Below, piece after piece: positions 132 to 57,100 of a DNA stretch of 64,000 bases. The notes beneath the pieces were generated by a model. The model saw only the letters and a list, made by a program, of their open reading frames with translations. It was not told where the DNA came from and did not search any database. The translations under genes and the position numbers were made by a program. Source of the DNA: Isurus oxyrinchus (Eukaryota); assembly GCA_026770705.1 (NCBI GenBank), contig JANJGN010000034.1, forward strand, positions 4,588,001 through 4,652,000, given 5' to 3'. Numbering within the stretch: the stretch's first letter is position 1; each line of letters opens with the position of its first letter.

Positions 132-167
132 AGCTCACTGAATGCAAAGAGTCTTCGAAAGATTTAA
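132..167 (+). CDS. Microexon type A, 36 nt
   Basis: ttccag|AGCTCACTGAATGC...GATTTAA|gtaaga; (E)LTECKESSKDL. Confidence 0.85.
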   Translation, partial: SSLNAKSLRKI

Positions 168-30100: not shown

Positions 30101-33100
30101 AAGAATGAGCTCCTGTTGTTTTGGGTCTTTTTGCCTCGTTCCAGAGCTGAAATCATGCAAAGAATCTTTGAAAGATTTAGGTGAGAAAACAAAATTGTGA
30201 AACTCTCGCCTGTTGATGGGGCAATGAATTGATCTGGGGGACAAATGTTTTTGCCGGACCGTTTTCTCCAAGACGCATTCCCTGCACCATTTACTTCTGC
30301 AGTTTAGACGTCAAGTGTGGTGTTTAACAACAGGGAGTATAAAATGCCAGCCGTTCTGTACTTTCATCAGAGAGATGTTTGTGGGGCCATTTGACGGAAT
30401 GTCGCAAAGTATTATTGAAATTACTAATCAACACTTATATTCTAGCTAGTACAGGCAGCAATTGCAATTATTATCTATAATGGCATTGCTGCTGATAAAC
30501 TGAGCTGTTGACACTCAAATGCAATAATTTCAATTTTCAGAAGAAAAGCTGAAATCAACGCAAACGGGTATTAAACGTTCTGACACAACTACGATTTTGC
30601 AAAACAAAATGTTTTAATTAGGATGGAACAAGAGACCTTCAGCCAAATTCATATATTTAATTGCATTATGTTTACACAATATTGCAAGGGTAACGTAAAT
30701 CTGAGTGTCGTGGAATGTTACTGGTGCTGTGTATGATAATAGCAATAGATGTGACGATGTTAATGCTGATTATTCATTTTTAAAAACATCTGTCTTTTTG
30801 CCAGGTTCGATTGCATGATACTGACCAGATTTCTATAATTAGAGAGTCAATTACCTTTAGGTGTTCTTAACTATTTAATACCCGAGGGATTCACATAGTT
30901 CTTGAAAAAGTTGGTGCGACATTGGTCCTCGGAGGCAACAACAGTGGATTGCATTGTCTGTTATGGTTGCATACCGTTGACCCAATTGGCCTTTCCCTTG
31001 CCATAAGTGCAAAACAAGAATCATGCAAAATGTTAGAGCACTTCCCAGGTGAGGGAACTTGAGGTCAATAAATATTTATGATATATATGAAGTGATCTGT
31101 TCTTCTTCCTTTACAGACCTGGATGGTGTCAGAAAAGTCGCTCATGACTCAGGTTAGCACACGCGTGGTGGGTTCGGAAGGCAGCTTCATCAATTGGATT
31201 AAGTGAGAAGAATAGTTTTGCACACAGATTTAAACTAATGTTAACCCGCTGAAACAGAATGTCGAGTTTCGTTTTCCTCAAGATTCTGCCACAATAATAC
31301 GATGCCATTATCCAGAAGAATAAATAGAAGGTTAGCATTAAATTCATATTTGTATTTATTGAAAGTGAGGACTGAATTGAAAGGGGCAATGGCGGGTTTG
31401 TAAATATTCAGATTGCCGTTTTTCAACTGTTAATTTGCAATCCAAATGTTAACATTAGTGAACTGAGAAATGTCAGACGTCAGAAACTGTTAGTTTTTCA
31501 AGGTTAAACTGGTTTTCGTCCCGATCGGTGGCACAATTCAGCCTTAGATATGTAATAGAACATAGAATTAATGTGCTGGAGCAGCTCCGATCTTGCAGAA
31601 GTAAGTCACGATCAGAGGTACTGTTCACAAGTTAAATTGTGCATTAGAAATATAAATACCAAATCTAAATATAGGAGTCCAAACTTTCAGATGATACAAC
31701 TAATCTACTGGCATGATTTTTTGAAAGCATGTGAACTGTTTCTGGCTTCGGGAAGGGACATTTTTTTTTTTTACTAAACCTACCTCAGCATAAACGTGGT
31801 AGGCAATTATATAACGAAGTGCAATTTTCAGCTCCCAGTGAGCAAATTTAGATGTTTTTTCTCTAAAATTGAATAAGTTCCAGTTATAACTGGTAGGCTG
31901 AAAAACATTTTTGGAAAGCACTTGTCCAGAAGGACTAAATGTTTTGGAAGTTTGCATTAGATTCTAATACCAGCTGTCCCCGATAAAAGAAAGGCGAAAC
32001 GTTTCTGACAAATGTGGAAACACTGAAACTGAGAGTGTGATTTTCTCTTCGATGGAAACAGATTTTGTTTTACATTATTTCCATTAATGCAGAACTCAAT
32101 TCATAAAACAATCTTAAAAAGATATGATGAACCGAGTGATCCGAGTGATTCATAACTCAAAGCAAAGTTATTCACTAAATAAGTGTAGAATGAAGTTCCG
32201 TTTAGACATACGTGCGCATCCAAGAACAGGGAATGGCATGTTTGCGTGTGTGGTGTGTGTGCGGATAAATAATCGGCTGTCATTTAAAAGTTTAGCATTC
32301 ACTGCTTTGAAGTGGATTTTTGCATACCCATCGGGGACAAAGATTCGAAAGTCGTTTATCCTTAATTGCCCAAGATAACAGTACTGGGAATGTCCTGAAT
32401 TGAAGCGCAAGAAGGCCCACATTGTGACGTCCCATTAGAATACAGCAAATTCCTCCCAAATCGCTGGAGCAGAAATGAGGAACTTGCGAAAACAAGGGAA
32501 ATTGTCCTCTTCAAATTTAGTGAAAATCGTTGCAGGCTTTTAATCTATGCACCTTGGTATGGTAATCGATGAATAACGACCTCAATTTTGGAAAGTTGCA
32601 GTGAGCAGGAGCATCCACATTCCATGTCGTTCTTTGTTCCATTTCCTCCATGCAACTCGGGCTTGGACTTTTTAATGACATCTCACTTCTAATCTTTACG
32701 TCTAATTTCACGATGTTGCCTTTTATTACTCTCTTCAGTATTGACCAATAGTCGGAAAGGTTAACCAATATCTCTTAAGTTGAATACTTAACTCCACTTA
32801 GGCGCTTGAATTGGGTTACCATTAAGGTATAAAACATTGAATTCAAGTGTCTTCTTCGGAAGAAGAAAGCTTCATAATGCAAATCGCAGATCCTGGCTAT
32901 AATCATCATCAATCCGCAGGAACTACTTCCAAGCACATTAATTATTGCGATGCCCAGAGGTGAAACTAGGAATCTAGATTAATCAGGCCTGTGCTTTATC
33001 TAACTTTCGTGCTTATAAAGGCGAAGATTCTGAATAACCTCGTGAAGTTAGTCAATGATTATTGTAATCTAATTTTGTCCAATTTATTTTAACAGATCAA

Positions 33101-36100
33101 AAAATAAAATCAGAGGAGAATGGTAATTCATTTTGAAATCATATTTAAAATGTGCTTAGGCATTCGTAATTTTCCTCTTCCTGCCCTCGGCCCACAAGAG
33201 GCAGATGCAGAAGGCGATGTTGGGAATATACCTCGACGGGAATTAGATAACCGGTTCAGGATTGAACAGCCTTCATTTCGATGCTTCAGCGTTGCCAGCT
33301 GTACTCTGTACAGCTGAACTACACTAACTTCTCCGTGACAGTTACATTATGATGGCCGATATTGTAGCCCGTGAGTTATTCTATGCGTGGTTCGCTCCTT
33401 CTGTCACATTTTGCCGTAGTTGTTGCTGAATTTCTGCAACTTCAAATTGTGATACAAACAGGGAGGGGTGGTCAATGACCGGGGCATAAATGAAAATGGC
33501 ATGACTGAATTTATTTTTCGGCATTATCACCTGATAACCCTTAACCATCTATCTGGTCAGTGTAAATTAAATTGCAAGCGTTTTCTTCAAGTAGGCGGAG
33601 GATTCGATCCATTGTGTCAATGCCAAAGATTTGTTAGGCCTCCCTTGCTCTCTTGACAATACAGTGTGTTATATTATGCAAAACCTTTTTTAGTACTTTC
33701 TGAAAGAGGAGAAAAGGGGGCACACACTAAAACTAAGCTGAATTTACAACACAGTCCATCCCATCATCCTTTCCTTTAATCGGAGCTCGCTCCAACATTA
33801 TAATTGCGCAAGACATTTTCGCTCCTCCAGTTTTAGTCAAATTGTGCACCATCGATTGCCTCCACTTAAAATCTTTCGGGATGACCGTCTAGTGCTTCTG
33901 AGCTCGTCACTGGGATTTCCTCCTATGAAAACAAATCTCTTCTGCTCTACTGTCCATTCTTGTGTCAAGACATTCCTTAACACATACGCCTTTGATAGAC
34001 CTCGGCTACAAGTCCAGTTACGGGCTTTGAGCCTCATCTTCAAATTTCTTCTGCACACATTTCATTGCAAAATCAACAATTTAAAGCATTTCATATTGTT
34101 TTAGTACGTGGAAGGCGTGATATCAAAGCAAGGAAAACTCGTTCTAAATTAATCTGCTGATACTTAGCGATTTTCCCCACTGCAGAGTTCATCCAATGCA
34201 AAGAATCTTTGAAAGTTTTAGGTGAGGTTATCGATTTGTATTCTGGAAACGATTGCACAATTGCATGGCAAGGATATCATATTTGAGAGAAACGTAGGGG
34301 AAGTGAAGTTGTGTTTACATCCCGTTTTAACAAATAACCATTTTTGGCTCAATTGACTCGTCGGTCGTTAAAAATAAACCGGAGCGCAGAACAGATGGTC
34401 AATACAATACCACAAGATCAGCAAATACCCCCGGCAAGTATTGCCAGCGCCACATGTCAGGTTGTAATGAACTTTCATTCCAGTTTACAATGCACAGCAC
34501 CGTTATCCTATCATCCATATGGCACAGAATTAGTCAGCTATTACGACTGCTTTGAAAAGAAAAAACAATATTGGCAATGAATTAAGCTGTTGAATCTCAA
34601 AGTCAACAACTTCTGCATTGCAGATCAAGAGCTGAAAGCGAAGCACAAAGGTACTTTTTTTTTCAGATCGACTAAACAAATGCATTATGACAGGCATTAG
34701 CAAAAAAAAAAAAAGATTATGTAAGCCAGCAGTCTTGCCGTTCAATTTGCTTACATACTTTGTACAGCATTGCATTTAAACCGAGACACAAATCAAGCCA
34801 CCACAGGAATGTAGACAAAGCAGTTTCGACATTGGCAAATGCAGGAATAAACGGTGATGGCACTACAAATATATAGATGTGGAATGTTATTAAGGTTGAC
34901 CTTTTTTATTATATATAATTATGCATTCTCAGAACAAAAAATTCAAAGTAGAGTGAAATGCATTTCCCTTTTTTATTTAGCAGCTTCCTGTCTGAGAAAT
35001 GACCGCTGTTCTATCAGTTAAAGGCATATGTTGACAATCCTCTTCGGAGTCAACCAACATGTGATGCCGTGGGATGCCTTTTTTTTTATTACAGTCGACT
35101 CAACATTTCTTTCTTTTGCCATTAGAGGGAAACATGCAACATGTGGGAGTATTGTATTATTCATTAGGCAAATAATCACCATCTGAATTAATATGCAACA
35201 TTGGATTTGCAGAAGGGAAGCGTCACAAGACAATACGAAGCGCTTGCTCTTGTGAATTTTTTTCAGTTTAAATGAAGTTTGAGATATTGTTGCAGGTGTT
35301 GAATTAAATGGCATCCATCGTCACGTAACCAATGATTTGGGCAGAAGTGCAGGAATTTCGTGACTTGAAATCTTTTGATTGTGGGTGTCTGAAGGGGACT
35401 GTTCTTCTTTCAAGAACTGGATAAGGTCAATAAAGGCACCGAAGACTCAGGACAGCACGCAAATAATGCTGCTGCCTTGGCATCATTTATTGAGGGAATG
35501 ATATAAATTGTGTACTGCACTTCTGATCCCAGAAAATAAAGTAAGGTGGGATTAACTCAGCGAAATAGAGAGCCTGGCCGGGTTCATAAATGAGCAATTT
35601 CCATCAAACCCTTCAGAATAAATCAAACATTTATTCTTATGTTTTGTTGCAAGCGGACATTTAGTCATATTTCATGTGAATTTAAATTGAGGACATCATT
35701 TGAAAGGGCTTGCTTGGCCTTGGCATCAGGTAAGGATGGCTTTGTGAGCTTATTATGTAAGGATCGATTTCCGATATTGTTATGTGCGAGGCACATATTG
35801 ACGTTATTGCTCTGAGAGTTTGGAGTGTTCTACAAACGTCCATCGATGAAGAACTCCCAGTTCTCATCTCTTCTAATGGAAAACATACACGTTTGTGTTT
35901 TCACCTGATAGAAAATAACATGAAGGAGGTACAGCAGCATCCATATGGGAAACAAGCCTGGGCTGTGGACAGATTCCACCCAGAGAATTAGCACGTGGCG
36001 AATAGGGATACTAATTTCTGTTCATGTAAAACTAATCTCTCAAATGAAGTAACACAAGTCAGAACTATATTTCAACTAGCATCACGGGAGCCACTCTGGA

Positions 36101-39100
36101 ATTTGGAGATAATGAATTAAATTTTACTTAAGCAAACTCAGTAGAGGTAATAACTGCGCTGGGCAAGTTGGAAATTAAAGTGCTATGTCTGCTGATGTTT
36201 AATCCTAAATTTGTTAAATTAACTGAGCGCCCATTTTGATCAGAGGATAAAATAATAGCTTATTTTGCGCCTTATATTAGTCAATGAACTTGGCCATTAA
36301 TTTATAGTTGAGCAACTTAAACTAAATTTGAAATGAAAATATATTAGCAAAGCACTTACTCTGATTTATTCAATTGTATCATCACTTGTTGATATATTTC
36401 ACTCTCTTCAGCTATATTACATTCTACTTTTTCATTGCTGTGTTGCTGTGTCAGATTCTTCTGACGCACTATTTAGGATCTTCCACTGCCGGAATTTCCC
36501 GTTTTTTAAAAAATTGTATTTAATTCTCTTCTCTGCTGCTGCTTTTTCTTTGTTGCAATTATTGCGTTTGGCATTGTCAATTGTTCAATCGCTATTATGA
36601 AATTCTCTGTTATTTCCAATACAGCTGCTGCGGGTAGTTACTGCACAGTTTTTAACATCTCTTCTCCAATGTTCTTTGGTGCACTTCCACATCAATGAAT
36701 AATATGATTGAATATTACTACCTTCTGGACAGGAGCAAATCATAATTGAGGAGTCAGCGTAAAGCTATGGAAAATGTAATGCATGCCTGTTGATTATGAT
36801 AACCTGAAATTGCGTCCTTGCATTCCAGAGTTAGGTGACTGCCTGGAAGCTTTAAAAAAAATAGGTGCGTCGTCTTTTTCATACCTATGCAGTTCCCATT
36901 AAGAGAAATTCGACTCAAAGTAAAAAGAGGCATTTGAAACTCCCGGATAGAAACTTCAATGCTGATTGCTATGAAGCGCTAAATTCTTAACTGGGTTGAT
37001 TTGCAATATTCATGTTGATATGTGTGTCGGCGTGGAGGATTTGATTTAAATAATATATATTTGTTCAATCGAAGTGGCGGCCACTGACGATCGTTGCCAA
37101 TCCGTAACTGCTCGTGAGAATGTCTTATGGAGCTGCTTTCTTGAACCGCTGGAGCACATGTGATGAAGGTGCACCTTAGGGATGGATTCGAGGATTTCAA
37201 TCAAGCAACAATTTCCACGTGCAAACGTCTATCAAGCATTAACCACTATTTTCTTTCGTACACACTATTATCCTTTTCCAATGCCGTGAGTATAAGAACA
37301 GTGGGGTAAACAAGTAGTTTTCAACAGAAGCCAGAAAATGGGTGAATCCGGATAAGAAGTCCGTAATAGGCTCAGCCATATATTACGCTCCTTAATTTCA
37401 ATATAACTGAATGGAAATCTACGTGCATTCAGGCTACTTCCGATTTATTGTAAAGATGTGTTTCAGGGACCTCACCAGTTCATAGAATCATATCATAGAT
37501 ACAACCGAATTTCCCTGCACCTCCTGAATTAAAGCTAAAATCTATGTCCAATCGTACTTACACCACCAGCTAATTTGAACAGTTTTTGCTACTCTTCCTT
37601 ACGGAAACATACCATACACATTCACGTTCACATTTAATCTCCTCTCAGTCACATTTGCTTCAAGGAGAACAACCAAAATTTGTCCAAAGTAACTTTATAG
37701 ATCAAACATTCCGTGCCATTTCCGACCGTTTCCGTCGTGAAACATCTGTGCTACATCCACTCAAGCACTCTCATACCCTTCTTCAATGTTGGTAAGCGGA
37801 ACTGGAGGCAACATTATATTTGGCACCTAACTAGAACTGTCCTAAATTTCAACATAGAATTCATGCTTTTGTTTTCAATGCCTCCATTAGCAATTCCAAT
37901 TACGTTTGTGAACCACTCGTTTACCATATCCTATCACCTACAAAACTCAATCCACATGCACCCGTGTACTTCTATGTCTACACACGCTTTAGAATTGTTC
38001 TATGATACAGATGCATTTTTCTCCACCCATTGCACCCAAGTGCTTCAACTCACAGTACATTATATTGAATTTTGTCTGCTGCGTGCTTGCCCAATCCGCC
38101 CATCCATTCCATGCTATTGCGACATCCAAACCCTGTATAATGGAGTAAAGAAAAATCAGTGGTATTGGAAGTAACCCTTGGGGAATTCAATATCTAACAT
38201 CCAGCAGCCTGGGGGTATTGGGGGGATGGGGGTGGGGTGTGGTGCTGCAGGGGGTAATGCATATTTGCTCCTTTCTGCACAGGAGAAAATTTGCATCCAA
38301 CAATTCTTATATCGCTCTCCCATGATCCTAAATGCTGTTTGTCAACCTGGTTAGGATTACCTTTTGACAGTATAAGTTATTTTAATACATACGGGGAGTT
38401 TCATCTCATCGCTTTTATCAACATCTCTGCTGCTTCTTCACAACTGTGATTAAATTATTCAAACATGATCACAATATATAAGCTCGCCAAGGAGATCAAC
38501 GTTTGATATACCGAGTGGTTCGCACGTCTGGGATTAATGCCCTCTGTTATTTTGCATTTTCTCTCAGGTCTAATATAAGCAAAAAAACTAGTTTATAAAT
38601 AATATGTAAAACAACACAGCACAGTAATGGCGCCACTTGCAGTTCTGTCAGGAGGCAGCCTAGCAGCCAATTCTGGCATCTTAAATTCTAGACAATCTAA
38701 AATGTATTGTTTTATTTTTTTTCCCTAACAGAAGAAAAGCTAAAATTAAAAAGTACAGGTAGATGCAATAATGTTCATTTTGTAGAAGGAACAGCCGTTC
38801 ATTATGTGACCATTGTCCCTGTGTAACATGTGTTTGACAGGGTCATAACGTCATAGAGATATGTTTCACGGAAAGAGGCCCATCAGCCCATCCTGCCCGC
38901 GCCGGAGATCAAGTCACAGTCTACATTCATCCCATTTTCCAGCACTTGGCTCATACCCGTGAATGCTATGGAATGTCAAGTGTTCCTCTAAGATTTTAAT
39001 TCATGTGGTGGGTGTCCGCCTCTACCACCTTTTCAGGCAGTGATTTCCAGGTGTGCCCTTTCCTCTGCGTGGAAAAAATAATAATTTTCACCCCTCTAAG

Positions 39101-42100
39101 TCCCTTACCTTAAATCTATGCTCCCTTTCATCCTCTAACGGGAAATGGTTCTTCCTATCCTTCAAATCTACACCTCTCATAATTTTGTGCATCTCAATCA
39201 CATCCCCCCGAGCCTCCAATTCTCTAAGAAAAACAATCCCATCTGTCAAACTCTCTCCATAGCTGAAAAGCTCCAGCCTAGGTAGCATCCACGTGAATCT
39301 ACTCTGCACCTTCCCAAATGAAATTACGTCTTTCCTACAGTATGGCGACCAGAACTGCAGACAGTACTCCACATGAGGCCTAATCAAAATTTTATACAGC
39401 CCGATCATAACTATATTGCTCTTGCATTCAGTGTCTCGAAAACTATTTTCAGGATAGTATAGACATTAGTAACAAAATTATCTACGGGTCATGTGTCAGT
39501 CTAAGATCTATACACATACACACCAACGCCCCTCTGATCCCTTCTACTGCCTATGGTCCTGTAATAGACCCTGTACTCCCTTGACTTGTCAATCCTCCCA
39601 AAATACCTCATCTCAACTTTTCAGGATTTCATTTTATTTGACAATCTTCTGTCCATCTGACCAACATGTCTATGTCGTCCTTTCATATAAGGATTTCCAC
39701 CACGCTATTTACCACACCAGCAAATTCAGTGTCATCAGCAAACAGTCTAAACCTAAGTCCTACATTCATGTCTAGACCATTACGTACACGGCAAACAACA
39801 AGATATACAGCAGCGAGCCATGTGGTACGCCGGAGGACACAAGCTTCTGGTTTCAAAAGCAACGTTGTACCATGACACTCTGCCTCCTGTCCTTAATCCA
39901 ATTTTTGACCCAGTTTGCCAAAATGCCCTGGATCCCTTGGGCTCTTACCTTCTTGAACAGTCACCACTGCGAGGACATTTCAAAGCCTTACTTACGTCCA
40001 TTTAGTCTAACTCAACCACACTATCCGCATGTACCACATAGTCACCTCCTCAAAAAATTCGATAAAATTTGTTAAACCTGATGGCTACCAGTCAAAACTA
40101 TGCTGAGTAAAATTATTAATCATTGCATCTCCCAGTGGAGATTAATTAGGTCCTTCAGTTTTTATTTCCAAAAGATTCCCTACCACTGATGTTATATTGA
40201 CTGTACTTTAGTTTCTTGCTTTATCCATATGCTCATTTTGAATAATGGTGCCATGTTCGCTTTCCTCCAGTCGTCTGTCATCTCCCGTGTGGCCAGACGG
40301 TATTTGCAATTTGACATCAGGTTCCCTGTAACCTTCCGTTTGCTTACCACAGAAGCTGGGAATTATCACAGTGGGCAAAGGAATTATTGAATGTTAAGTC
40401 CCCTTAAAACTGCAACACTTGCTTCCTCTCTGTGCTAATTTGCTCATGTATATCATAGTCTCCCTTCCTGATTTCTCTACATCTTTCATCCTTCCCTACA
40501 GTGAATACCGAAGAAAATTGATTACTTAAAACAAAATCCACGTCTTGCAACTCTTCACACAGATTGTCAATGTGGCCCCGAATGGACTCTACTCTTTCTA
40601 ATGTTATACTCTTGCCCCTAACACACTTATAAAACCCTCTTTGAACTCGTTTATTTTACCCACCATTGTTTTACATGCCCACTCTTCGATCTAATTATTT
40701 AAAGTAACCTCCTACACTTTTTTTCACTCCTCTGGGGTTTCCACATTTTTCAGCCCTCAGTATGTAAAATAAGCGTTACTTTTTTTTCCCTAATTCAATC
40801 CTACACATTAATGGACTTACGGGGTTCTCTGGATATCCTGGCTCCATCTTGTGTCTTTACAGGAACATGTTGATCATGCACACTCACTATTTTATTTTTG
40901 AATGACTCCCAATTCTCTGAATAGATTTTCTACAAGTAGCTGGTCCCGGACCACTTTGGGCAGAACTTGATTTGCCATATTAAAATCGCTTTCACACCAA
41001 TTTAGAAACTTTGAATCCAGTCCATATTTGTCCTTTTACGTTAATACCATAAATATTACTTAGTTATGGCCGCAATCACTGAAAAGCTCCCCACAGACAT
41101 ATATACCACTTGCCCAGCTTCGTTCAATAAAGTTCAGTCCAACACTACTCCAGTTCCCTCTCTTATAGGACTTTCTACATGCTGACGTAAAAAGTGCATG
41201 GAGATCATTTTTAAGAATGCCTTCATGTCAAAGCCTTCCATACTTAGTCTATCCCAATCAAAATTTGGGAATTTAAACTCTCCTACTGTTATTGCCATAT
41301 TATTTTTACGCTTCTCTGCGTAAACATCTGCCCCTCCATACGTCCCTACCTCTTTGCAGGCCTATAGTACATTATAAGCAGTCTGATTGTCCTCTTCTTG
41401 TTAATGAGATCAACGTATATGACCTTGATTGAGTAACAATCGTAGGCATCAGCCATCCGTGTTGCTGCCATTGGCTCGTAGAACAATATTGCGACAACAG
41501 CAAATCTTTCACGCAACTAACACCCCGTGCAATCGCCCTTCCCACCACCCCCCACCCCACCCCCTCCCAACACCATCCACACCACCACCGCCTGAAGATT
41601 GTATACCTGGAATATTGATCTGCCAATCCTGTCCCTTCCTCAACCACATAGGTGTGAGATCAACGGTATTGTATCCCAATGTTTTAATCAACACCTGCGG
41701 CTCATATGCTTTACTTGCAAGACCGCGTAAATTATGAGAAAGGTCTCCAGCTTTTCCTTGCTCCCCATATACCATTATTTGACCATCTCTGCTCTGCCTT
41801 CTCGACCGACTTGATTTTTCCCCTCTATTTGCTGTGCATCACCCTCCACTATACATCCGCTCCTTACCCATTCCTCTGTCAAATTAGTTTAAAGCCATAC
41901 CAGCATTAAGACCAACACTCCTCCCTCCGCTCAACACCCAAGGCTGCTGGTGTCACTCCGGTTCAGGTTCAACCCGTCGGATTTGCACTTCTCCAGAGAA
42001 ATCACCTAAAGAACCAAAAAATTAAAGACCACTCTCCGGCATGAACGCTTCCTTCACGCATTCAGCAGTTCTAACCAACTATTGGGATACTCACTAGCAA

Positions 42101-45100
42101 GTGGCACAAAATCAATCAGAAGAGTATAACACTTGAGGACCTGCTTTCTAATCTGTAGCAAACTTCATCGGTTCTTGATGCAGGGTCTCATCCCTCTCCG
42201 TACCTATATCGTTAGTACCAATGTGAATGATGAACTCTGGCAGTTTGTCCTCCACCTACAGAATGCCCTGCATTCGGCCAGTGAAAACCTTCTCCCTAGA
42301 GCCTGGAGGGCAGCACAGATCCCTGGAGCCACGTATGCAGCCGCAGAAACACCTGTCTGTACCCCCTCACTAATGTGTCTCCTCCTACCATTGCTTTTCT
42401 CCCTTTCTCCTCGCCCTCGTGAAACTGGGCTTTGGCTGCTCTCCTCAGACGAACTGTCATTCACACCGTTTTCCAACACCCAAAAAAAAAAATGTTCTTG
42501 AGTGGGCAGCAGTTTGAGACTTCCCTGACTACCGACCTGTGTCCTTGCCGGGGTCACCAATTCCTTCCCTTACTGCATTCCCTTAAACTGCGGTGTGACC
42601 ATTTCTAAAAAATGCTCTATCCACATAGCTGTCTGGGCCGCAATTGCACTGCTGTGCCTCCAGCCAACACTCAAGCTCGGAAACCCGGCGCTCATGACTG
42701 TCCAAACTATCAGGAGTGTCCAAGATTCATATCTTTAGAACGGATTATGTTCATTACATTTTTACTCATATTTTACAATGCAATGAACTTAAAGTGCCGT
42801 TAGTGTTCATCTGGACTAATTCAATGAAGGGGCTCCATAAGATTGTTCTGAGGAAAATAGTTCTGCTTAAGAGCGCATCTAAAACAGAAAGCCACAGAAG
42901 TTTTACATTATAGTCACCAGTAGATCCAAAAGCAGTTATTCTTCGAACCTTTCCCAGGTTCTGGTAACAAGATGACATTCACCATCATGATGTTTTGTCA
43001 AGATTAATGGCCATGCTGTATTTAGGGTAAAGTTGCATTAAGAAATGCGAGCTGAGCAATATACAATGCTGGAAAATTGATGTGTGGTTAAACACGATAG
43101 ACAGTAAGACTCCAGTCATTAACTTATGCAAATGCCTCGGCGATTTCCATGGAAAAAGCCATTTATAATGCGTGAGGAGCCAAAGTCACGCATCACAAGT
43201 TCAAAAACATTTTCAAACCCTTATCTGTACCATGCTGAACTCGTTGTCAATAGCCATACCATTAACCAGGCAGCTGGAAAAAAAGTGCAATATCTGAAAA
43301 AGCAGTATTTGGTGATTCTGCGCTAGTAAATAATGTACTAACTGTGCATACTCGCCCATAATTTAAATGGATAAGTATGACATGTGACGAAATGCTCCCT
43401 ACTTGCACGGAAGGATGCAGCTCCAACAACCCTCAAGGAACTCGAAATTATATCAAGGCAAAAATTCCCGCTTTATTTGTACCCATTCCAGAACTGAAAA
43501 ATCCTCAAATCCACCCCCTGACCACGGATGTCAACAGTCTGCAGCAAAAAAAGAGCCCTGCTGCAGCACAGCAATTCTGCTGCGACAAGACCTTTAAGCT
43601 CGCAGTGTTTATCATCCAGAAGAGTGAGGCCATGAAGCACAATGGATCATCACCAACTTGCAAGTTCCCTTTCAAGAAAATCAATATCCTCGCAACTAAA
43701 TTTACCCCATTTTATCATCATCGTCACGCCCAACTCCGACATCATCACAGGTGACAGTGTTGGGACAGCATGAACATTGCATGAATTGCAGCAATTCAAC
43801 AACAAGGTTTTCTTCACCCTTTCAGTTGCAATCATTGTGAGGAATAAATGTTGATCTTATTACCAAGGACCAGACTCCATGATCAAACAGAAATGGAATT
43901 GGAGGAGAATGTTGCAGAACACCAGATAGCATGGAACAGTTGCTTCCACCTGGCCCACTCTATGAAGTAAAACCGAAGTCTTCTTTTAAATTGACATTGT
44001 GAAATTCAATGGCAAAGAACATTTAGCCTCAGTCGATTTCCCTGTGTTTTATCTTAACCTGCTGTGGTGCATAATGGACGATTATCTGTATATTCGCCAT
44101 ATTACGCTTTTTCTCTAAAACTGTCATGCTACAAATATTAGCATTTTTTAAGGATGAGGCGTTTCTTTAACATTAAGGGCAAAGCATTTATGCACATAAG
44201 TTTGTAGCAGAAATAAAATCATTGGCACTGAAGCCTATCCATAACTGCTCATCCAGGTGTGGAATTAATGCAAATATTGATTTTTTTATGTATTTCGGCT
44301 ACATTACATAAAATTAATTTGTGGTATGACATAACGTCAGAAGGTCAGAAGAGCTTCAGGGGAGACATCTTGAAACACATTGTGGAGAAAGTGGATATCA
44401 GTCTCCTAAGGGGTAGTTCAAACGACTAGTGTAGGAAAATGTAAAGATGATTAAATATATGTTCATTAAACATCATTAGTAGTTACTATGCATGTAGTTA
44501 CTTTGGAGTAGAAGTCTTTTGCAGAGATCAATTGCATAAGCACATATTTTGTTTTCACTAAATCCTATGCATTAGCACTGGGTAGAGGAGGATTTTTTTT
44601 TCTGAAAAATGACTGTTTCAAAATTAATTTAATGAAATTGCAGATCTTCTTAAATGCGAAGAATCTTCAAAAGAAACAGGTGAGCACTTTAATTCTTGTA
44701 CAGTTCTGATGCTGTTTGTTGAGAGAAAAAGGCAATTTCGATAAAGGCCGTTATACACATAAAACAATCAAAATTCCCATGAACTTCCATGCGTTTTTTC
44801 TTCGGCCCCTGTCCCAGTTGGCTGCACAGGATCAATTCCTGTCTAAATTGCTCAAGTTTGCCGAAGCTTTTATTCAATAGCCTCCTGGAACACATTTGCA
44901 TATGGTTGAAGGCAAACATCCAGTTCATAGAATCATATTATAGATACAACCGAATTTCCCTGCACCTCCTGAATTAAAGCTAAATTCTATGTCCAATCGT
45001 ACTTACTCCACCAGCTAATTTGAACAGTTTTTGCTACTCTTCCTTACGGAAACATACCATACACATTCACGTTCACATTTAATCTCCTCTCAGTCACATT

Positions 45101-48100
45101 TGCTTCAAGGAGAACAACCAAAATTTGTCCAAAGTAACTGTATAGATCTAACATTCCATGCCATTTCCGACCGTTTCCGTCGTGATACATCTGTGCTACA
45201 TCCGCTCAAGCACTCTCATACCCTTCTTCAATGTTGGTAAGCGGAACTGGAGGCAAAATTATATTTGGCACCTAACTAGAACTGTCCTAAATTTCAACAT
45301 AGAATTCATGCTTTTGTTTTCAATGCCTCCATTAGCAATTCCAATTACGTTTGTGAACCACTCGTTTACCATATCCTATCACCTACAAAACTCAATCCAC
45401 ATGCACCCGTGTACTTCTATGTCTACACACGCTTTAGAATTGTTCTATGATACAGATGCATTTTTCTCCACCCATTGCACCCAAGTGCTTCAACTCATAG
45501 TACATTATATTGAATTTTGTCTGCTGCGTGCTTGCCCAATCCGCCCATCCATTCCATGCTATTGCGACATCCAAACCCTGTATAATGGAGTAAAGAAAAA
45601 TCAGTGGTATTGGAAGTAACCCTTGGGGAATTCAATATCTAACATCCAGCAGCCTGGGGGTATTGGGGGGATGGGGGTGGGGTGTGGTGCTGCAGGGGGT
45701 AATGCATATTTGCTCCTTTCTGCACAGGAGAAAATTTGCATCCAACAATTCTTATATCGCTCTCCCATGATCCTAAATGCTGTTTGTCAACCTGGTTAGG
45801 GTTACCTTTTGACAGTATAATTTATTTTAATACATACGGGGAGTTTCATCTCATCGCTTTTATCAACATCTCTGCTGCTTCTTCACAACTGTGATTAAAT
45901 TATTCAAACATGATCACAATATATAAGCTCGCCAAGGAGATCAACGTTTGATATACCGAGTGATTCGCACGTCTGGGATTAATGCCCTCTGTTATTTTGC
46001 ATTTTCTCTCAGGTCTAATATAAGCAAAAAAACTAGTTTATAAATAATATGTAAAACAACACAGCACAGTAATGGCGCCATTTGCAGTTCTGTCAGGAGG
46101 CAGCCTAGCAGCCAATTCTGGCATCTTAAATTCTAGACAATCTAAAATGTATTGTTTTATTTTTTCCCTAACAGAAGAAAAGCTAAAATTAAAAAGTACA
46201 GGTAGATGCAATAATGTTCATTTTGTAGAAGGAACAGCCGTTCATTATGTGACCATTGTCCCTTTGTAACATGTGGTTGACAGGGTCATAACGTCATAGA
46301 GATATGTTTCACGGAAAGAGGCCCATCAGCCCATCCTGCCCGCGCCGGAGATCAAGTCACAGTCTACATTCATCCCATTTTCCAGCACTTGGCTCATACC
46401 CGTGAATGCTATGGAATGTCAAGTGTTCCTCTAAGAACTTAATTCATGTGGTGGGTGTCCGCCTCTACCACCTTTTCAGGCAGTGATTTCCAGGTGTGCC
46501 CTTTCCTCTGCGTGGAAAAAATAATAATTTTCACCCCTCTAAGTCCCTTACCCTAAATCTATGCCCCCTTTCATCCTCTAACGGGAAATGGTTCTTCCTA
46601 TCCTTCAAATCTACACCTCTCATAATTTTGTGCATCTCAATCACGTCCCCCCGAGCCTCCAATTCTCTAAGAAAAACAATCCCATCTGTCAAACTCTCTC
46701 CATAGCTGAAAAGCTCCAGCCTAGGTAGCATCCACGTGAATCTACTCTGCACCTTCCCAAATGAAATTACGTCTTTCCTACAGTATGGCGACCAGAACTG
46801 CAGACAGTACTCCACATGAGGCCTAATCAAAATTTTATACAGCCCGATCATAACCATATTGCTCTTGCATTCAGTGTCTCGAAAACTATTTTCAGGATAG
46901 TATAGACATTAGTAACAAAATTATCTACGGGTCATGTGTCAGTCTAAGATCTATACACATACACACCAACGCCCCTCTGATCCCTTCTACTGCCTATGGT
47001 GCTGTAATAGACCCTGTACTCCCTTGACTTGTCAATCCTCCCAAAATACCTCATCTCAACTTTTCAGGATTTCATTTTATTTGACACTCTTCTGTCCATC
47101 TGACCAACATGTCTATGTCGTCCTTTCATATAAGGATTTCCACCACGCTATTTACCACACCAGCAAATTCAGTGTCATCAGCAAACAGTCTAAACCTAAG
47201 TCCTACATTCATGTCTAGACCATTACGTACACGACAAACAACAAGATATACAGCAGCGAGCCATGTGGTACGCCGGAGGACACAAGCTTCTAGTTTCAAA
47301 AGCAACGTTGTACCATGACACTCTGCCTCCTGTCCTTAATCCAATTTTTGACCCAGTTTGCCAAAATGCCCTGGATCCCTTGGGCTCTTACCTTCTTGAA
47401 CAGTCACCACTGCGACGACATTTCAAAGCCTTACTTACGTCCATTTCGTCTAACTCAACCACACTATCCGCATGTACCACATAGTCACCTCCTCAAAAAA
47501 TTCGATAAAATTTGTTAAACCTGATGGCTACCAGTCAAAGCTATGCTGAGTAAAATTATTAATCATTGCATCTCCCAGTGGAGATTAATTAGGTCCTTCA
47601 GTTTTTATTTCCAAAAGATTCTCTACCACTGATGTTATATTGACTGTCCTTTAGTTTCTTGCTTTATCCATATGCTCATTTTGAATAATGGTGCCATGTT
47701 CGCTTTCCTCCAGTCGTCTGTCATCTCCCGTGTGGCCAGACGGTATTTGCAATTTGACATCAAGTTCCCTGTAACCTTCCGTTTGCTTACCACAGAAGCT
47801 GGGAATTATCACAGTGGGCAAAGGAATTATTGAATGTTAAGTCCCCTTAAAACTGCAACACTTGCTTCCTCTCTGTGCTAACTTGCTCATGTATATCATA
47901 GCCTCCCTTCCTGATTTCTCTACATCTTTCATCCTTCCCTACAGTGAATACCGAAGAAAATTGATTACTTAAAACAAAATCCACGTCTTGCAACTCTTCA
48001 CACAGATTGTCAATGTGGCCCCGAATGGACTCTACGCTTTCTAATGTTATACTCTTGCCCCTAACACACTTATAAAACCCTCTTTGAATTCGTTTATTTT

Positions 48101-51100
48101 ACCCACCATTGTTTTACATGCCCACTCTTCGATCTAATTATTTAAAGTAACCTCCTACACTTTTTTTTCACTCCTCTGGGGTTTCCAAATTTTTCAGCCC
48201 TCAGTATCCAAAATAAGCGTTACTTTCTTTCCCTAATTCAATCCTACACATTAATGGACTTACGGGGTTCTCTGGATATCCTGGCTCCATCTTGTGTCTT
48301 TACAGGAACATGTTGATCATGCACACTCACTATTTTATTTTTGAATGACTCCCAATTCTCTGAATAGATTTTCTACAAGTAGCTGGTCCCGGACCACTTT
48401 GGGCAGAACTTGATTTACCATATTAAAATCGCTTTCACACCAATTTAGAAACTTTGAATCCAGTCCATATTTGTCCTTTTACGTTAATACCGTAAATATT
48501 ACTTAGTTATGGCCGCAATCACTGAAAAGCTCCCCACAGACATTTATACCACTTGCCCAGCTTCGTTCAATAAAGTTCAGTCCAACACTACTCCAGTTCC
48601 CTCTCTTATAGGACTTTCTACATGCTGACTTAAAAAGTGCATGGAGATCATTTTTAAGAATGCCTTCATGTCAAAGCCTTCCATACTTAGTCTATCCCAA
48701 TCAAAATTTGGGAATTTAAACTCTCCTACTGTTATTGCCATATTATTTTTACGCTTCTCTGCGTAAACATCTGCCCCTCCATACGTCCCTACCTCTTTGC
48801 AGCCCTATAGTACATTATAAGCAGTCTGATTGTCCTCTTCTTGTTAATGAGATCAATGTATATGACCTTGATTGAGTAACAATCGTAGGCATCAGCCATC
48901 CGTATTGCTGCCATTGGCTCGTAGAACAATATTGCGACAACAGCAAATCTTTCACGCAACTAACACCCCGTGCAATCGCCCTTCCCCCCCCCCCCCCCCC
49001 CCCCCCGCCCCCCAACACCATCCACACCACCACCGCCTGAAGATTGTATACCTGGAATATTGATCTGCCAATCCTGTCCCTTCCTCAACCACATAGGTGT
49101 GAGATCAACGGTATTGTATCCCAATGTTTTAATCAACACCTGCGGCTCATATGCTTTACTTGCAAGACCGCGTAAATTATGAGAAAGGTCTCCAGCTTTT
49201 CCTTGCTCCCCATATACCATTATTTGACCATCTCTGCTCTGCCTTCTCGACCGACTTGATTTTTCCCCTCTATTTGCCGTGCATCACCCTCCACTATACA
49301 TCCGCTCCTTACCCATTCCTCTGTCAAATTAGTTTAAAGCCATACCAGCATTAAGACCAACACTCCTCCCTCCGCTTAACACCCAAGGCTGCTGGTGTCG
49401 CTCCGGTTCAGGTTCAACCCGTCGGATTTGCACTTCTCCAGAGAAATCACCTAAAGAACCAAAAAATTAAAGACCACTCTCCGGCATGAACGCTTCCTTC
49501 ACGCATTCAGCAGTTCTAACCAACTATTGGGATACTCACTAGCAAGTGGCACAAAATCAATCAGAAGAGTATAACACTTGAGGACCTGCTTTCTAATCTG
49601 TAGCAAACTTCATCGGTTCTTGATGCAGGGTCTCATCCCTCTCCGTACCTATATCGTTAGTACCAATGTGAATGATGAACTCTGGCAGTTTGTCCTCCAC
49701 CTACAGAATGCCCTGCATTCGGCCAGTGAAAACCTTCTCCCTAGAGCCTGGAGGGCAGCACAGATCCCTGGAGCCACGTATGCAGCCGCAGAAACACCTG
49801 TCTGTACCCCCTCACTAATGTGTCTCCTCCTACCATTGCTTTTCTCCCTTTCTCCTCGCCCTCGTGAAACTGGGCTTTGGCTGCTCTCCTCAGACGAACT
49901 GTCATTCACACCGTTTTCCAACACCCAAAAAAAAAAATGTTCTTGAGTGGGCAGCAGTTTGAGACTTCCCTGACTACCGACCTGTGTCCTTGCCGGGGTC
50001 ACCAATTCCTTCCCTTACTGCATTCCCTTAAACTGCGGTGTGACCATTTCTAAAAAATGCTCTATCCACATAGCTGTCTGGGCCGCAATTGCACTGCTGT
50101 GCCTCCAGCCAACACTCAAGCTCGGAAACCCTGCGCTCATGACTGTCCAAACTATCAGGAGTGTCCAAGATTCATATCTTTAGAACGGATTATGTTCATT
50201 ACATTTTTACTCATATTTTACAATGCAATGAACTTAAAGTGCCGTTAGTGTTCATCTGGACTAATTCAATGAAGGGGCTCCATAAGATTGTTCTGAGGAA
50301 AATAGTTCTGCTTAAGAGCGCATCTAAAACAGAAAGCCACAGAAGTTTTACATTATAGTCACCAGTAGATCCAAAAGCAGTTATTCTTCGAACCTTTCCC
50401 AGGTTCTGGTAACAAGATGACATTCACCATCATGATGTTTTGTCAAGATTAATGGCCATGCTGTATTTAGGGTAAAGTTGCATTAAGAAATGCGAGCTGA
50501 GCAATATACAATGCTGGAAAATTGATGTGTGGTTAAACACGATAGACAGTAAGACTCCAGTCATTAACTTATGCAAATGCCTCGGCGATTTCCATGGAAA
50601 AAGCCATTTATAATGCGTGAGGAGCCAAAGTCACGCATCACAAGTTCAAAAACATTTTCAAACCCTTATCTGTACCATGCTGAACTCGTTGTCAATAGCC
50701 ATACCATTAACCAGGCAGCTGGAAAAAAAGTGCAATATCTGAAAAAGCAGTATTTGGTGATTCTGCGCTAGTAAATAATGTACTAACTGTGCATACTCGC
50801 CCATAATTTAAATGGATAAGTATGACATGTGACGAAATGCTCCCTACTTGCACGGAAGGATGCAGCTCCAACAACCCTCAAGGAACTCGAAATTATATCA
50901 AGGCAAAAATTCCCGCTTTATTTGTACCCATTCCAGAACTGAAAAATCCTCAAATCCACCCCCTGACCACGGATGTCAACAGTCTGCAGCAAAAAAAGAG
51001 CCCTGCTGCAGCACAGCAATTCTGCTGCGACAAGACCTTTAAGCTCGCAGTGTTTATCATCCAGAAGAGTGAGGCCATGAAGCACAATGGATCATCACCA

Positions 51101-54100
51101 ACTTGCAAGTTCCCTTTCAAGAAAATCAATATCCTCGCAACTAAATTTACCCCATTTTATCATCATCGTCACGCCCAACTCCGACATCATCACAGGTGAC
51201 AGTGTTGGGACAGCATGAACATTGCATGAATTGCAGCAATTCAACAACAAGGTTTTCTTCACCCTTTCAGTTGCAATCATTGTGAGGAATAAATGTTGAT
51301 CTTATTACCAAGGACCAGACTCCATGATCAAACAGAAATGGAATTGGAGGAGAATGTTGCAGAACACCAGATAGCATGGAACAGTTGCTTCCACCTGGCC
51401 CACTCTATGAAGTAAAACCGAAGTCTTCTTTTAAATTGACATTGTGAAATTCAATGGCAAAGAACATTTAGCCTCAGTCGATTTCCCTGTGTTTTATCTT
51501 AACCTGCTGTGGTGCATAATGGACGATTATCTGTATATTCGCCATATTACGCTTTTTCTCTAAAACTGTCATGCTACAAATATTAGCATTTTTTAAGGAT
51601 GAGGCGTTTCTTTAACATTAAGGGCAAAGCATTTATGCACATAAGTTTGTAGCAGAAATAAAATCATTGGCACTGAAGCCTATCCATAACTGCTCATCCA
51701 GGTGTGGAATTAATGCAAATATTGATTTTTTTATGTATTTCGGCTACATTACATAAAATTAATTTGTGGTATGACATAACGTCAGAAGGTCAGAAGAGCT
51801 TCAGGGGAGACATCTTGAAACACATTGTGGAGAAAGTGGATATCAGTCTCCTAAGGGGTAGTTCAAACGACTAGTGTAGGAAAATGTAAAGATGATTAAA
51901 TATATGTTCATTAAACATCATTAGTAGTTACTATGCATGTAGTTACTTTGGAGTAGAAGTCTTTTGCAGAGATCAATTGCATAAGCACATATTTTGTTTT
52001 CACTAAATCCTATGCATTAGCACTGGGTAGAGGAGGATTTTTTTTTCTGAAAAATGACTGTTTCAAAATTAATTTAATGAAATTGCAGATCTTCTTAAAT
52101 GCGAAGAATCTTCAAAAGAAACAGGTGAGCACTTTAATTCTTGTACAGTTCTGATGCTGTTTGTTGAGAGAAAAAGGCAATTTCGATAAAGGCCGTTATA
52201 CACATAAAACAATCAAAATTCCCATGAACTTCCATGCGTTTTTTCTTCGGCCCCTGTCCCAGTTGGCTGCACAGGATCAATTCCTGTCTAAATTGCTCAA
52301 GTTTGCCGAAGCTTTTATTCAATAGCCTCCTGGAACACATTTGCATATGGTTGAAGGCAAACATCCAGTTCTGCAGAAAACTGGCAGCAGCACGGCAAAT
52401 AATATTTGGAATGCCTGTTTTGCTTTTGATCTCTTCCATTATATATTTAAGCTCGGTAGTTTGTGAAAGCCGCATGAATGTCACGTTTCTCTTATGGCTA
52501 TTATCAACAAACGTAAGATATGTTAGCGACCGTAACTGGCCCACTTCCGAATAAAGAGATGTTAAATTGCGAATGGGTGCCTGCATTTAGGTTGCTGAAA
52601 TATTGGCTCGCCGCTTTCGACGGCAGCAGCTTCTTTCCGACGAAATTACTGGTGAATCATGTTCAACAGCTTTTAAAATGATCAAATGATATAATTATGC
52701 CATGAAGCTCCAGTTTTATTTCACGCACCTCCAAAAGTAGCAAAAACAAAAAAAAGAAAATAAATAATGATAAATAATTCATTCTGTTGGCCTTGCTTTT
52801 TTGTTGCATCTAAAAGGAATTGGAATGTTTGCCTTTGAACAAATGCGAAATATGTTGAAACATAATTCGGCTCTGGACCTTATTTTTTTGTCTTGACTCC
52901 TTTGAATCAATATCAATGTAATTGTTTCGCGGCAACTTTGTGTGATAAAAAAACATCAGTGCAATTCTCTGGACATATTAAATGGGAATGATGGCGTCAC
53001 ATTGTCTTGTTTTTTTATTGCGTAGATCAAACCTCCGGCTGAAAAAGCGTATCATTCACTGCGGAAGTGCTGATGAGCTGTCCACAAGGGAATTGTTCGG
53101 GACATTTAAACTTTTGATGAGCAAACCCGCTGCCCCCCATGATCCTCCCCGAAAGCCCCTGACTCTGACTTTCAATTGGATATGTCGAACAGTTCTGTGG
53201 TACTTGCCTGAAAGTTTGCCCAGTGAATGGTAGGCAAGTTAAAACATAGATTAACACCTGTGTGACTAAACTACTCACTGCAGCACGTTCTCCGTATATC
53301 ACGCAGAACACACGACTACACCCACAATCACGTGACCAGCTTCCCAACCTGACGCGATCGGACAATCCCAATAACATAACCCGACTAGACCTCGGACAAT
53401 ACCTGAGAACCTCATGAAAACATGAGGAAACACCCTACCGGGCCGCACCCAAATACCGCCCGACCATCCAACTAGGCCCCAAACACTCGAGTACTTCCCC
53501 GACAGAATTGACTGGCACAGCCAGCTAAATACTACAAGACGGGCGCTGAACACCCACTGAATACCAGACTCCACATCAGATCCTAATCACCACACTCTGA
53601 AAACCCCGCCTGCACTCCGAACTGCGCCAACTTAAACCCGACTAACGGAATAACTGACACATGTCTCGACTACCTTCTGATCACTCATTGCACCCTAAGC
53701 GTCATATTACATCCCCAACCAGAAACGACTAAAGGCCGACCTCCCGTCACGCCGGCTAACCTCTAATCGATTGAACTAAGAAATGACTCACCTACCCCAA
53801 GTGGAATCGTCAACCCCGCCGAACCGATTAGCTGCAGACGCGAAGAGACAACACTTCGATGGCCAGGCTGCCCCAAACACACGGCTGGCTCCCCAATATG
53901 AGTCGATAATCCGAACGCCCAACAGACACAGCAACTTTTCCACCACCCCGGATGTGACCAGAATGCCCCCTTGAACAGGATACTACACTTCAGAGGTGAT
54001 CTGACTACCGCCGTTCGAAAACTGAAGTGTGCTGGCACGACTATCTACTGAACCACTTATGTATTTCACCCACCTATCACTTACCCATTTACCCACACAA

Positions 54101-57100
54101 AAATTCGAACCACCTCACCTTTACAACACCCTACCCACAAGCTCACTATGTCCATATTATGCAGCTCACCCACCTGATCATCCTTTCAGTCATACCCACG
54201 CTTTTACGGAGCCACCTACCTCACCCGTCCACACTAAAACCCTGCCCACGATCCCACCCTTCCAATTATACCCTCCACGTACCACCTCACCGACACTAAC
54301 CACCGCCCATGCAAACAAAACTTTCAATTACCCAACTACCCACATACTCACTCGGCTCCACGGAATATCAGCAATGATGAGCGAATGGCTCCTGAAAGCT
54401 ACGGTTTCTCGAATGGATGCTGCCATGCATATCTGCGGTGTTTTCGACTACCACACAAATGCATAGTGCAGCGTCCCTTGAGTAATTCCATCAAAGAGGG
54501 GTAAAGATAAGGGAAGGAAAAGCACTCCTCATTACTTCTGGTACGATGTGGCATATGCAAATAATTTGGCTGAACCAATGAACCGGTGACTATGCAAATG
54601 AGCGATTGAGCTAATATGGAGCTGGGTTATGGTACAGTGTGGAGTTGGACAGCTGCATAAGCTGGTTAGGGTGGGCAGGGTGGATAAGTTGTTTGGTGGA
54701 TGGGGCAGTTCGGTCGATGACTGAGTACTTGAGCATGGTCTTACATATGCAGCTGGGCAGCACAGGCACCTGGGAAGGTCGCTAAGTTGTTTAGGTTGCT
54801 CGGTGAGTAGGATTGGTAGTTGGATGAATTGTGCAGGTGGGTGAATTAGGCGGTAGATAGTGTGGGAAGGTGGATAGATCATGAGTGGATAATTGGTTAG
54901 GTGGGCAAGTAGGTAAATGTGTGACGTGGTGCTTAGTTGGCTTTGAAGGCGGGATGATGGTGTGTCCTGTGAGAGGTTAGTGCGGTATTTGTGGGTGGAC
55001 GTTATTGGTCGATGGTGGATAGGCTAGTCAGGTGGTACTCAGAGCGGCTCTGTGATGGTCGGGTGTTTGAGCTGTTCGCTGTGGTTTGGCCGAGAATCTT
55101 TCCAAACATGAAGCGTTCATCAGCTCATCACAACTGTCTTGATGTGTTGCAAAGCTACCCAATGTTTCACAACAATACCCATTAGCAGCAGTAATCAGCT
55201 TCCCCTTCCAGTGCCCTCTCTAATGTGGTTTCTGAAACACCTTCCGACAAAAATTATTTTGCCACATTCCGGATAATAAAAAATATGAGCCTACCGAAAA
55301 ACAGTGCAATCAATTTCTCACTATTTATGGTGTCAGAAATATGTCAATGCTTTCACTGCTTCAATCATGCCAACACCAAAAACCTCCCCAGCTCCCCTTC
55401 CGCCCCCACCGCATCCAACCACCCCCCTCCACCCTCACCCCCGCCGTTCCACGAGCGCCCAGTAAGGCATTCTTCCACCCCCACCACATCTCTTCTGCTC
55501 ATCCCAGCACCCCCCAAATCACTGAACCACTAAGTTGGGCATTCACTTTAAATATCGCCATGAGCCAGACTAAATGTGAAATTTGGAATTATGCTCTTGT
55601 TTGACAGACACAGGCACGATAGGTCCAGCTACCTCATCCCAATACGGGGCCTTGTTTTTTTTTTTAATGTCTCTGTTATCTATGCTTTAACATTCTGCAC
55701 ATTGTCCGACTTTTATTTTACTCCTTAACAGAAGCGAAGTTAAAAGCGAAAGAAAAAGGTAACCTTTTGACAAAGTAGGCGACAAAACCCCAACTAATTC
55801 TTGTATTTGCCTCTCTTATTTTTCAATTATCTTTAATCCGTTCTACTTTTTGCTGCAATTTTCGCTACCATCAACGAAGCGTAGACGTTTTAACTTGTCA
55901 GGGCAAAGGAGATAGAGCATTTTAAGGAGGCCATCGTGGAGTGGTATTGTAGCTGTGCTGGTAATCCAGAGACCCAGGTTAATGCCCCGCGGACCAGGGT
56001 CCAGCAAATGTTGAAATTTAAGTTCAATAAACATCTGGAGTTAAAAGCCAAATGGTGATTCCAAAACCATTGCTCATTGTTATAAAAACGCATCTGCTTC
56101 ACTGATGTCGTTTGGGGAAGTTAAGCTGCTGTCCTGACTTGATCTGACCTATATGTCACTTCAGTGCGATTGAATCATAAATGCCCTCGGAACAAGGGCT
56201 TTTGGGAATGGGCAATAACTGCTGATTTAGCCAGCGACGCTCACATCCCATGGATAATTTTTAAAAAAATATTAATAATTTCAATGAGACAATCAAGAGA
56301 GTAGTTGCAATCTGCTAGTTCTGGAACTGCTTTGGTAACAGACGACGTTTGGAAAGTAGCCCACAAACACGTGTCCATAGCAGATCGCGGTAATCGGGGC
56401 TCTTAAATTAAATGCAGATTTAAAAATTCAATGAAATTTTTAAAAGAAAGCTGTTGCACGAATATACCTTTGGAAATATATCGCCCTCCCTTCTGCAGCC
56501 TGTGCAACAGGTTACTCCAGGCCAGAAAAGCAATACATTCAACGATTCAATGGACTTCCAAACGTCACACCGCCTCATTACCAATGAAAATGGTCTAGTG
56601 GCAATGAACACTTATATTGCCAGAGATACCAACATCCCATACATGAATGTTTTTTTATTTTCTTCCTGTCTCGGAAATGATGAAAACTTTTTCTTTAACG
56701 CAGATAATCAGGGCACATTTGGTAAAATAAGATGAAGTACAAGGGATCAAAACGTCGTGCCGATTCGTTTCTGACAACTGGAGAAGGAAAAGTTTCACTT
56801 TGTGCACAGAAAGTTGCATGTTACTGTCGGGAGGAATACTTTTCATCCTGTCTGCTTTCTGGCAATTCTGCAGGAAACCGGTAGAACTGAATATTAATTG
56901 AAGGCCTGCATTTACATTCTGCATGATTATACACCGCTGTTCTCTCGATGTAGAGACCAACTAATTAACGGGCAGGTCATACAGCTGGAAGACAATCGGT
57001 AACACTCGTTGGCTAAATGTCTACCTCTGCAGAATTGATTTGTTTTTTTTCTGCGCTTGTCTTTCGTATGACCTAGTCCAACGGGCACAACAATAAATAA

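Follow-up and report, generated by a model that had tools for sequence, protein, structure and literature searches.

The window, a 64,000-nucleotide stretch of DNA from Isurus oxyrinchus, carries a tandem duplication of 7445 bp within a predicted array of micro-exons, and the two copies are a mosaic of a diverged and a nearly identical segment. Our preferred reading, to which we give somewhat less than an even chance, is that this is a real, young and non-recurrent tandem duplication, with another haplotype as the source of the left part of copy 1. Self-alignment placed the copies in direct, head-to-tail order at 37475..44919 (copy 1) and 44920..52364 (copy 2), each 7445 bp long with indels that cancel. 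The self-BLAST alignment of 37475-44926 with 44920-52371 had 99.17% identity over 7455 columns, with 56 mismatches and 4 gap openings, and the remaining six of the seven matches at E<=1e-8 in the whole window were all 125 bp or shorter. The tandem duplication of this length claimed in the original prediction was thereby borne out.

The junction at 44920 contains no inserted bases, and there are no N bases in the window. The motif CCAGTTC occurs on the forward strand at the left parental breakpoint (37475..37481), at the junction (44920..44926) and at the right parental breakpoint (52365..52371), the three places where it had been predicted. On both sides of the motif the two parental breakpoints have mismatching bases, which limits the microhomology to exactly 7 bp. 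At least 7 bp were common to random breakpoint pairs in 0.065% of 2,000,000 draws (about 6.5e-4). No longer homology was found in the 60 bases on either side of the breakpoints and no inverted repeat was found in 37200-37800, while 52100-52700 held two 10-nt inverted pairs, neither of them at the breakpoint. Tandem Repeats Finder reported three short rows, none at a breakpoint, and Rfam gave no matches. We consider that the junction is quite probably real. Its anatomy suggests that template switching or microhomology-mediated joining made the duplication, and the head-to-tail order and 7 bp of homology, with no extended homology, agree with the earlier assignment to replication-based or microhomology-mediated events. 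A replication or repair intermediate would have passed through the predicted 36-nt exon and reached CCAGTTC at the right breakpoint. It would then have re-primed 7445 bp upstream, where that 7-mer also occurs, and recopied the stretch. The two copies would then have been identical at birth.

They are now unevenly different. Among the 62 differing columns, 61 lie within the first 4481 bp of the unit and one at unit position 5213; the last 2239 bp show no differences between the copies. Counted as events, there are 52 differences from copy 2 in the 4481 bp of the diverged segment of copy 1 (37475..41955; 1.16%) versus one, at 42687, in the 2971 bp of its near-identical segment (41956..44926; 0.03%), with none from 42688 to the junction. 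The best change point was 41955, with a log-likelihood gain of 22.4. A difference-free run of 2239 bp appeared in none of 200,000 uniform permutations, and its length bounds the divergence there at 0.13%. The near-identical block stops exactly at the end of the unit, and within the first 4481 bp the differences are evenly spread (variance/mean 0.64 in 9 bins). The near-identical segment is almost all intron, and therefore constraint does not account for its identity. This step in divergence within the unit had not been noted earlier and is the most informative feature of the duplication. Sequencing error was rejected as the source of the differences: transitions are in excess (29 of 51 substitutions, p 5e-4 versus random, with five columns in a C-run excluded), and CpG-type decay is found on both copies (5 and 2). 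There are only 4 indel events. The copy differences are thus real variants, either allelic or paralogous. The original prediction called the duplication recent. A mean identity of 99.2% cannot date the event when the copies are a mosaic of segments at 1.16% and 0.03%, although a young age is kept in our preferred reading.

In that reading, copy 1 would owe its left 4.5 kb to a different haplotype, by way of either a single crossover with the homologous chromosome or an assembly phase switch. Either event, occurring once in copy 1, leaves the copies divergent up to the switch and identical from there to the junction, so that the observed pattern would follow directly. The value of 1.16% would then measure allelic divergence and not the age of the duplication, and the duplication may still be polymorphic; the copy-number polymorphism suggested in the original prediction is plausible. 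However, two points in the copies themselves stand against this. One difference remains at 42687, and 1.16% amounts to roughly six times the mean diversity reported for epaulette shark (0.002; PMC10587355), a value from another species and not one for this locus. Shark genomes differ widely between species and chromosomes (PMC9826928). A third point against it is that a heterozygous-to-homozygous boundary is also prone to false duplication (PMC9516828).

An alternative that we regard as unlikely is that the duplication is real but older. The copies would have diverged as paralogues to 1.16%, and a tract of gene conversion or repeated unequal exchange would then have homogenised the last 2-3 kb. 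The clean junction with its 7 bp is the same evidence for this reading as for ours, and the even spread of the differences over the first 4481 bp suits it. It also accounts for a divergence above the reported shark diversity, and at published shark rates, provided that they apply to this lineage, 1.16% corresponds to 0.27 to 8.3 million generations. However, it requires a tract of 2.2-3 kb that reaches the very end of the unit, which one crossover or phase switch gives free.

The same mosaic could also arise from a heterotype false duplication, in which each chromosome carries a single copy but both haplotypes, heterozygous in the left part and identical in the right, were put into one scaffold. 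The divergence may be of allelic scale and gives way abruptly to identity, a pattern that would fit. PMC9516828 describes heterozygous/homozygous boundaries as error-prone and faulty gap filling as able to close junctions. Like the false duplications described there, the present copies lie side by side, pass from differing to identical sequence and bring an exon gain, with a divergence that may be of allelic scale. An apparent assembly duplication of chicken BG0, for which the PCR amplicon had the size expected without duplication, is a precedent (PMC4046983). However, false duplications are mostly separated by gaps (PMC9516828), whereas here there is neither gap, N nor filler at the junction, even if a filled gap is possible, and 7 bp of microhomology are present. 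Such microhomology is not predicted by a blind join of contig ends, which would give an overlap of at least 7 bp at the random rate of 0.065%. We consider a false duplication rather unlikely.

Each copy of the unit contains one predicted 27-nt and one predicted 36-nt exon. In copy 1, the exon profiles placed a phase-1 27-nt exon, closest to the 27a class, at 38732..38758 and a phase-1 36-nt exon of the cysteine-bearing class, with a pyrimidine-poor acceptor, at 44644..44679, both on the forward strand. Their counterparts in copy 2, at 46175..46201 and 52089..52124 on the same strand, are identical to them, with AG/GT intact. This identity is also in keeping with a false duplication. No further exon candidate in the unit rose above the minus-strand null of the exon profiles, and none passed a generic scan. 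Both ends of the duplication lie in the same intron class, after a 36-nt exon, and hence one 27-nt and one 36-nt phase-1 exon were gained. The predicted gain is 9+12 = 21 residues, or three heptads, with frame and heptad register kept. The earlier claims of one such exon pair per copy and of three extra heptads therefore hold for the predicted exons. The 36-nt exon of the unit has the weakest acceptor among the listed 36-nt exons and was itself missed by a stricter scan, and it may be skipped.

The host of the duplication is a long forward-strand array of phase-1 micro-exons, recognised by exon profiles over the whole window. From 132 to 55758, 34 predicted exons with intact splice sites and no stop alternate strictly between 36 and 27 nt; the probability calculated for this alternation makes it look stronger than it is, because old duplications of several exons are not independent events. 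The 38 predicted exons read as 395 codons without a stop, with one doubtful exon (21338) retained and six exon homologues (13951, 14683, 21761, 22413, 27142 and 35415) excluded for their broken splice sites or stop codons. Four of these six dead homologues form two adjacent 27+36 pairs (13951+14683 and 21761+22413); no partner was found for the other two (27142, 35415). Hydrophobic residues and cysteines fall at heptad positions a and d, with an a/d contrast of 0.60 versus a mean of 0.13 and a maximum of 0.40 in 5000 shuffles of exon order. The old part of the gene (132..35450, forward strand) consists of alternating 27- and 36-nt exons in units of four or two exons, whose introns align only weakly; the dead homologues lie within it. 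Exons from 36829 onward resemble the old units in their cores only. The last array exon before the duplication is a 36-nt exon at 36829..36864, and the first one after it is a 27-nt exon at 55732..55758 (both forward strand, from exon profiles). The alternation ends after 55732 in four consecutive 27-nt exons, two of which come from the generic scan only.

The gene runs off the window, in which no Ig-V exon, membrane exon or neighbouring gene was seen. A Pfam scan of 11 of the 43 long open frames gave nothing above the cut-off. Searches for the host protein with peptide profiles of the 36-nt exons found none among 2317 and none among 406 candidates at E<=10. In local power tests, such profiles mostly lost relatives beyond 20-30% divergence, so this blank says little. 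A full-library profile search yielded six repeat proteins, all set aside as unrelated: one with NHL, one with leucine-rich and one with ankyrin repeats, and three with short repeats that fit no family convincingly. A limited literature search, which covered tandem duplication of exons and heptad exons of 27 and 36 bp in cartilaginous fish, gave no counterpart to the strict 27/36-nt alternation. The host gene is more surprising than the duplication, and the duplication adds little proof of the alternation rule.

This bears on the original prediction that the event obeys a pair rule. That it does is true, in that the 21 residues stay in register, but as evidence this is weak, worth about one bit. 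When a 7445-bp unit with both ends in introns was placed at random, it captured equal numbers of 27- and 36-nt exons in 4732 of 9384 cases across the whole window and in 1794 of 3698 local ones. Because half of the random placements comply, the single event is no test of selection. The view that the duplication is an array expansion caught in progress was overstated. Among 83 self-alignments of at least 90 columns, 82 were 56-75% identical and the duplication was 99.2% identical, with none between; the next most similar exons were 85% and 81% alike. No alignment was obtained between the unit's introns and the old units. Unequal crossover (NAHR) between array units was rejected as the origin, with breakpoints that do not sit at matching positions of homologous repeats and flanks that are unrelated. 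In this long-static array the duplication stands alone as a gain, and it arose by a non-homologous route that used no array homology.

The left breakpoint has a neighbour of its own. The 7-bp microhomology overlaps the first base of the short tail motif of a decayed CR1-like LINE 3' end (37481..37900, reverse strand, far end approximate), which recurs at 44926-45345. A second, better preserved CR1-like 3' fragment lies in the unit at 38843..39900 (reverse strand, far end approximate) and includes an open frame at 39088-39465. We take both elements to be CR1 and the repeats of the window to be of a cartilaginous-fish type; Pfam gave no match backing the CR1 label, and the one relative of the CR1-like frame found among four candidates points to no family or lineage. 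Used as an outgroup, this relative agreed with copy 1 at two of three differing residues and with neither copy at the third, too few to use. Segment 37530-37900 is colinear with 39100-39460 of the better preserved element (z 8.6, matched by none of 1000 shuffles and none of 292 other window segments), with bounds that were chosen after a wider comparison had given a z of only 3.5 and the best of 300 shuffles had exceeded its score. The decayed element and its neighbour share 368 identities in 703 columns. The earlier statement that the breakpoint adjoins a CR1 3' tail is thus supported for a CR1-like tail. Because the decayed element is inside both copies, it is older than the duplication. The 7.4-kb repeat was also considered as a target-site duplication of the LINE and rejected, the CR1-like fragment sitting inside each copy and not between them.

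Our preferred reading does not explain why the left breakpoint coincides with the CR1-like tail. The pair of 7-mers might be linked to the LINE, either as an old target-site duplication or because a nick at this tail set off the rearrangement. The overlap with the first base of the tail is an unlikely spot for a random break and speaks for such a link. However, the position of the element within both copies, its heavy decay, and the fact that the overlap was noticed afterwards all count against it, and we hold the link to be very improbable.

Returning to the preferred reading of a young duplication, we would tentatively extend it to a bolder proposal, which is possible but doubtful. An undescribed coiled-coil gene of cartilaginous fish would carry the duplication as a length allele that segregates. 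Its rod would change only in steps of three heptads because the 9- and 12-residue exons keep the register only as pairs. Gains and losses alike (the latter at 13951+14683 and 21761+22413) would follow this step, and duplicated and single-copy alleles would coexist and have already recombined. If this were true, the pair of alleles, about 3 nm of rod apart, would provide a test of selection on register and length. The duplication is of use as a marker. If it is real and polymorphic, it shows how a static micro-exon array can still acquire units in the absence of array homology, and it provides a coiled coil with two naturally occurring alleles of different length. If it is false, it is a false exon gain to be corrected in the assembly and annotation.

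Several known systems are comparable. LPA KIV-2, NBPF/Olduvai and ANKRD36 have two-exon intragenic repeat units in arrays of many nearly identical copies, and unequal crossover is how these arrays change. The present unit is likewise of multi-kb size with an exon pair encoding one protein repeat, but there are two copies here and one non-homologous junction. In the tails of chicken BG proteins (butyrophilin family), many 21-nt split-codon exons occur with a few of 18 or 24 nt, and the exon number varies by gene and haplotype from 27 to 37, with an apparent four-exon insertion in line 15I (PMC5938342, PMC4046983). The BG/butyrophilin type would also include Ig-V and transmembrane exons upstream of the tail, or B30.2 downstream. 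Both have a long coiled coil, predicted here, made from many tiny split-codon heptad exons, with cysteines in the coil. However, the BG exons are mostly of 21 nt and one heptad each, so that any number keeps the register, whereas exons of 27 and 36 nt give whole heptads only as a pair. The host gene may thus work like a BG tail, a likeness of architecture with a different exon size, and we do not file it there. The Tetherin/TMCC(aT)/PLVAP group, located between CILP2 and PLVAP, combines a membrane anchor with a coiled coil (PMC10617486). A tetherin-like or BG identity of the host gene was considered and is unproven. The duplication itself is closest to the microhomology-mediated intragenic tandem duplications of the FoSTeS/MMBIR/MMEJ class, described for human genes (PMC4303224, PMC3597517), among them dystrophin (PMC4303224). 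It shares with these cases a non-recurrent, head-to-tail arrangement, intronic breakpoints, microhomology of a few bp and a gain of whole exons, and it shows the testable features of this class. Tandem duplications that include exons and show microhomology are familiar, and as an event this one is ordinary; it differs from them in being predicted harmless to frame and register and in having copies that form a divergence mosaic.

The host array, a series of predicted phase-1 micro-exons on the plus strand (132-55758), comprises four exon classes, namely 27a, a cysteine-bearing 36, 27b and an acidic 36, and these predicted exons recur as four-exon units (42 residues) together with some two-exon units. 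Six further exon homologues on the same strand, at 13951, 14683, 21761, 22413, 27142 and 35415, have broken splice sites or a stop. Because four of the six make up two adjacent 27+36 pairs, exon losses seem to preserve the heptad register of the predicted coiled-coil product too. At 21338-21373 (+), a 36-nt homologue with an AAG acceptor has lost its cysteine through an apparent internal compensated frameshift, and in its partner exon at 20058 a core position is occupied by tyrosine. Splicing may bypass the two exons.

The 27/36 alternation stops within 55732-62195 (+), where 27-nt candidates lie at 55732, 59884, 59993 and 61392 and the next 36-nt exon is at 62160. The intron separating 59884 and 59993 measures 82 bp. 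This break after 55732 means either that an exon was overlooked or that the regular rod stops there.

The tandem 7445-bp copies differ in a C-rich run, which is nearly pure in copy 2 (48984-49013) and broken up by other bases in copy 1 (41536-41586), a difference attributable to slippage or a base-calling problem. Across the right breakpoint, at the CCAGTTC of 52365-52371, overlapping open frames of 150 codons (52134-52586, minus strand) and 108 codons (52228-52554, plus strand) gave no above-cut-off Pfam match; they are probably chance or a decayed repeat.

Elsewhere, the intronic stretches 8656-9470 and 27902-28683, in which no exon was detected, are 57% alike over 833 columns, suggesting an old duplicated segment or a shared repeat. 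A decayed retroelement-like frame, presumably Penelope-like, occupies 6422-6946 within 6020-6946, and an inverted repeat pairs 6020-6160 with 6551-6699 (75% identity). SINE-like fragments at about 55950-56270 and 60290-60420, on which the tentative placement of the sequence in cartilaginous fish rests, appear to resemble families described from sharks and rays.
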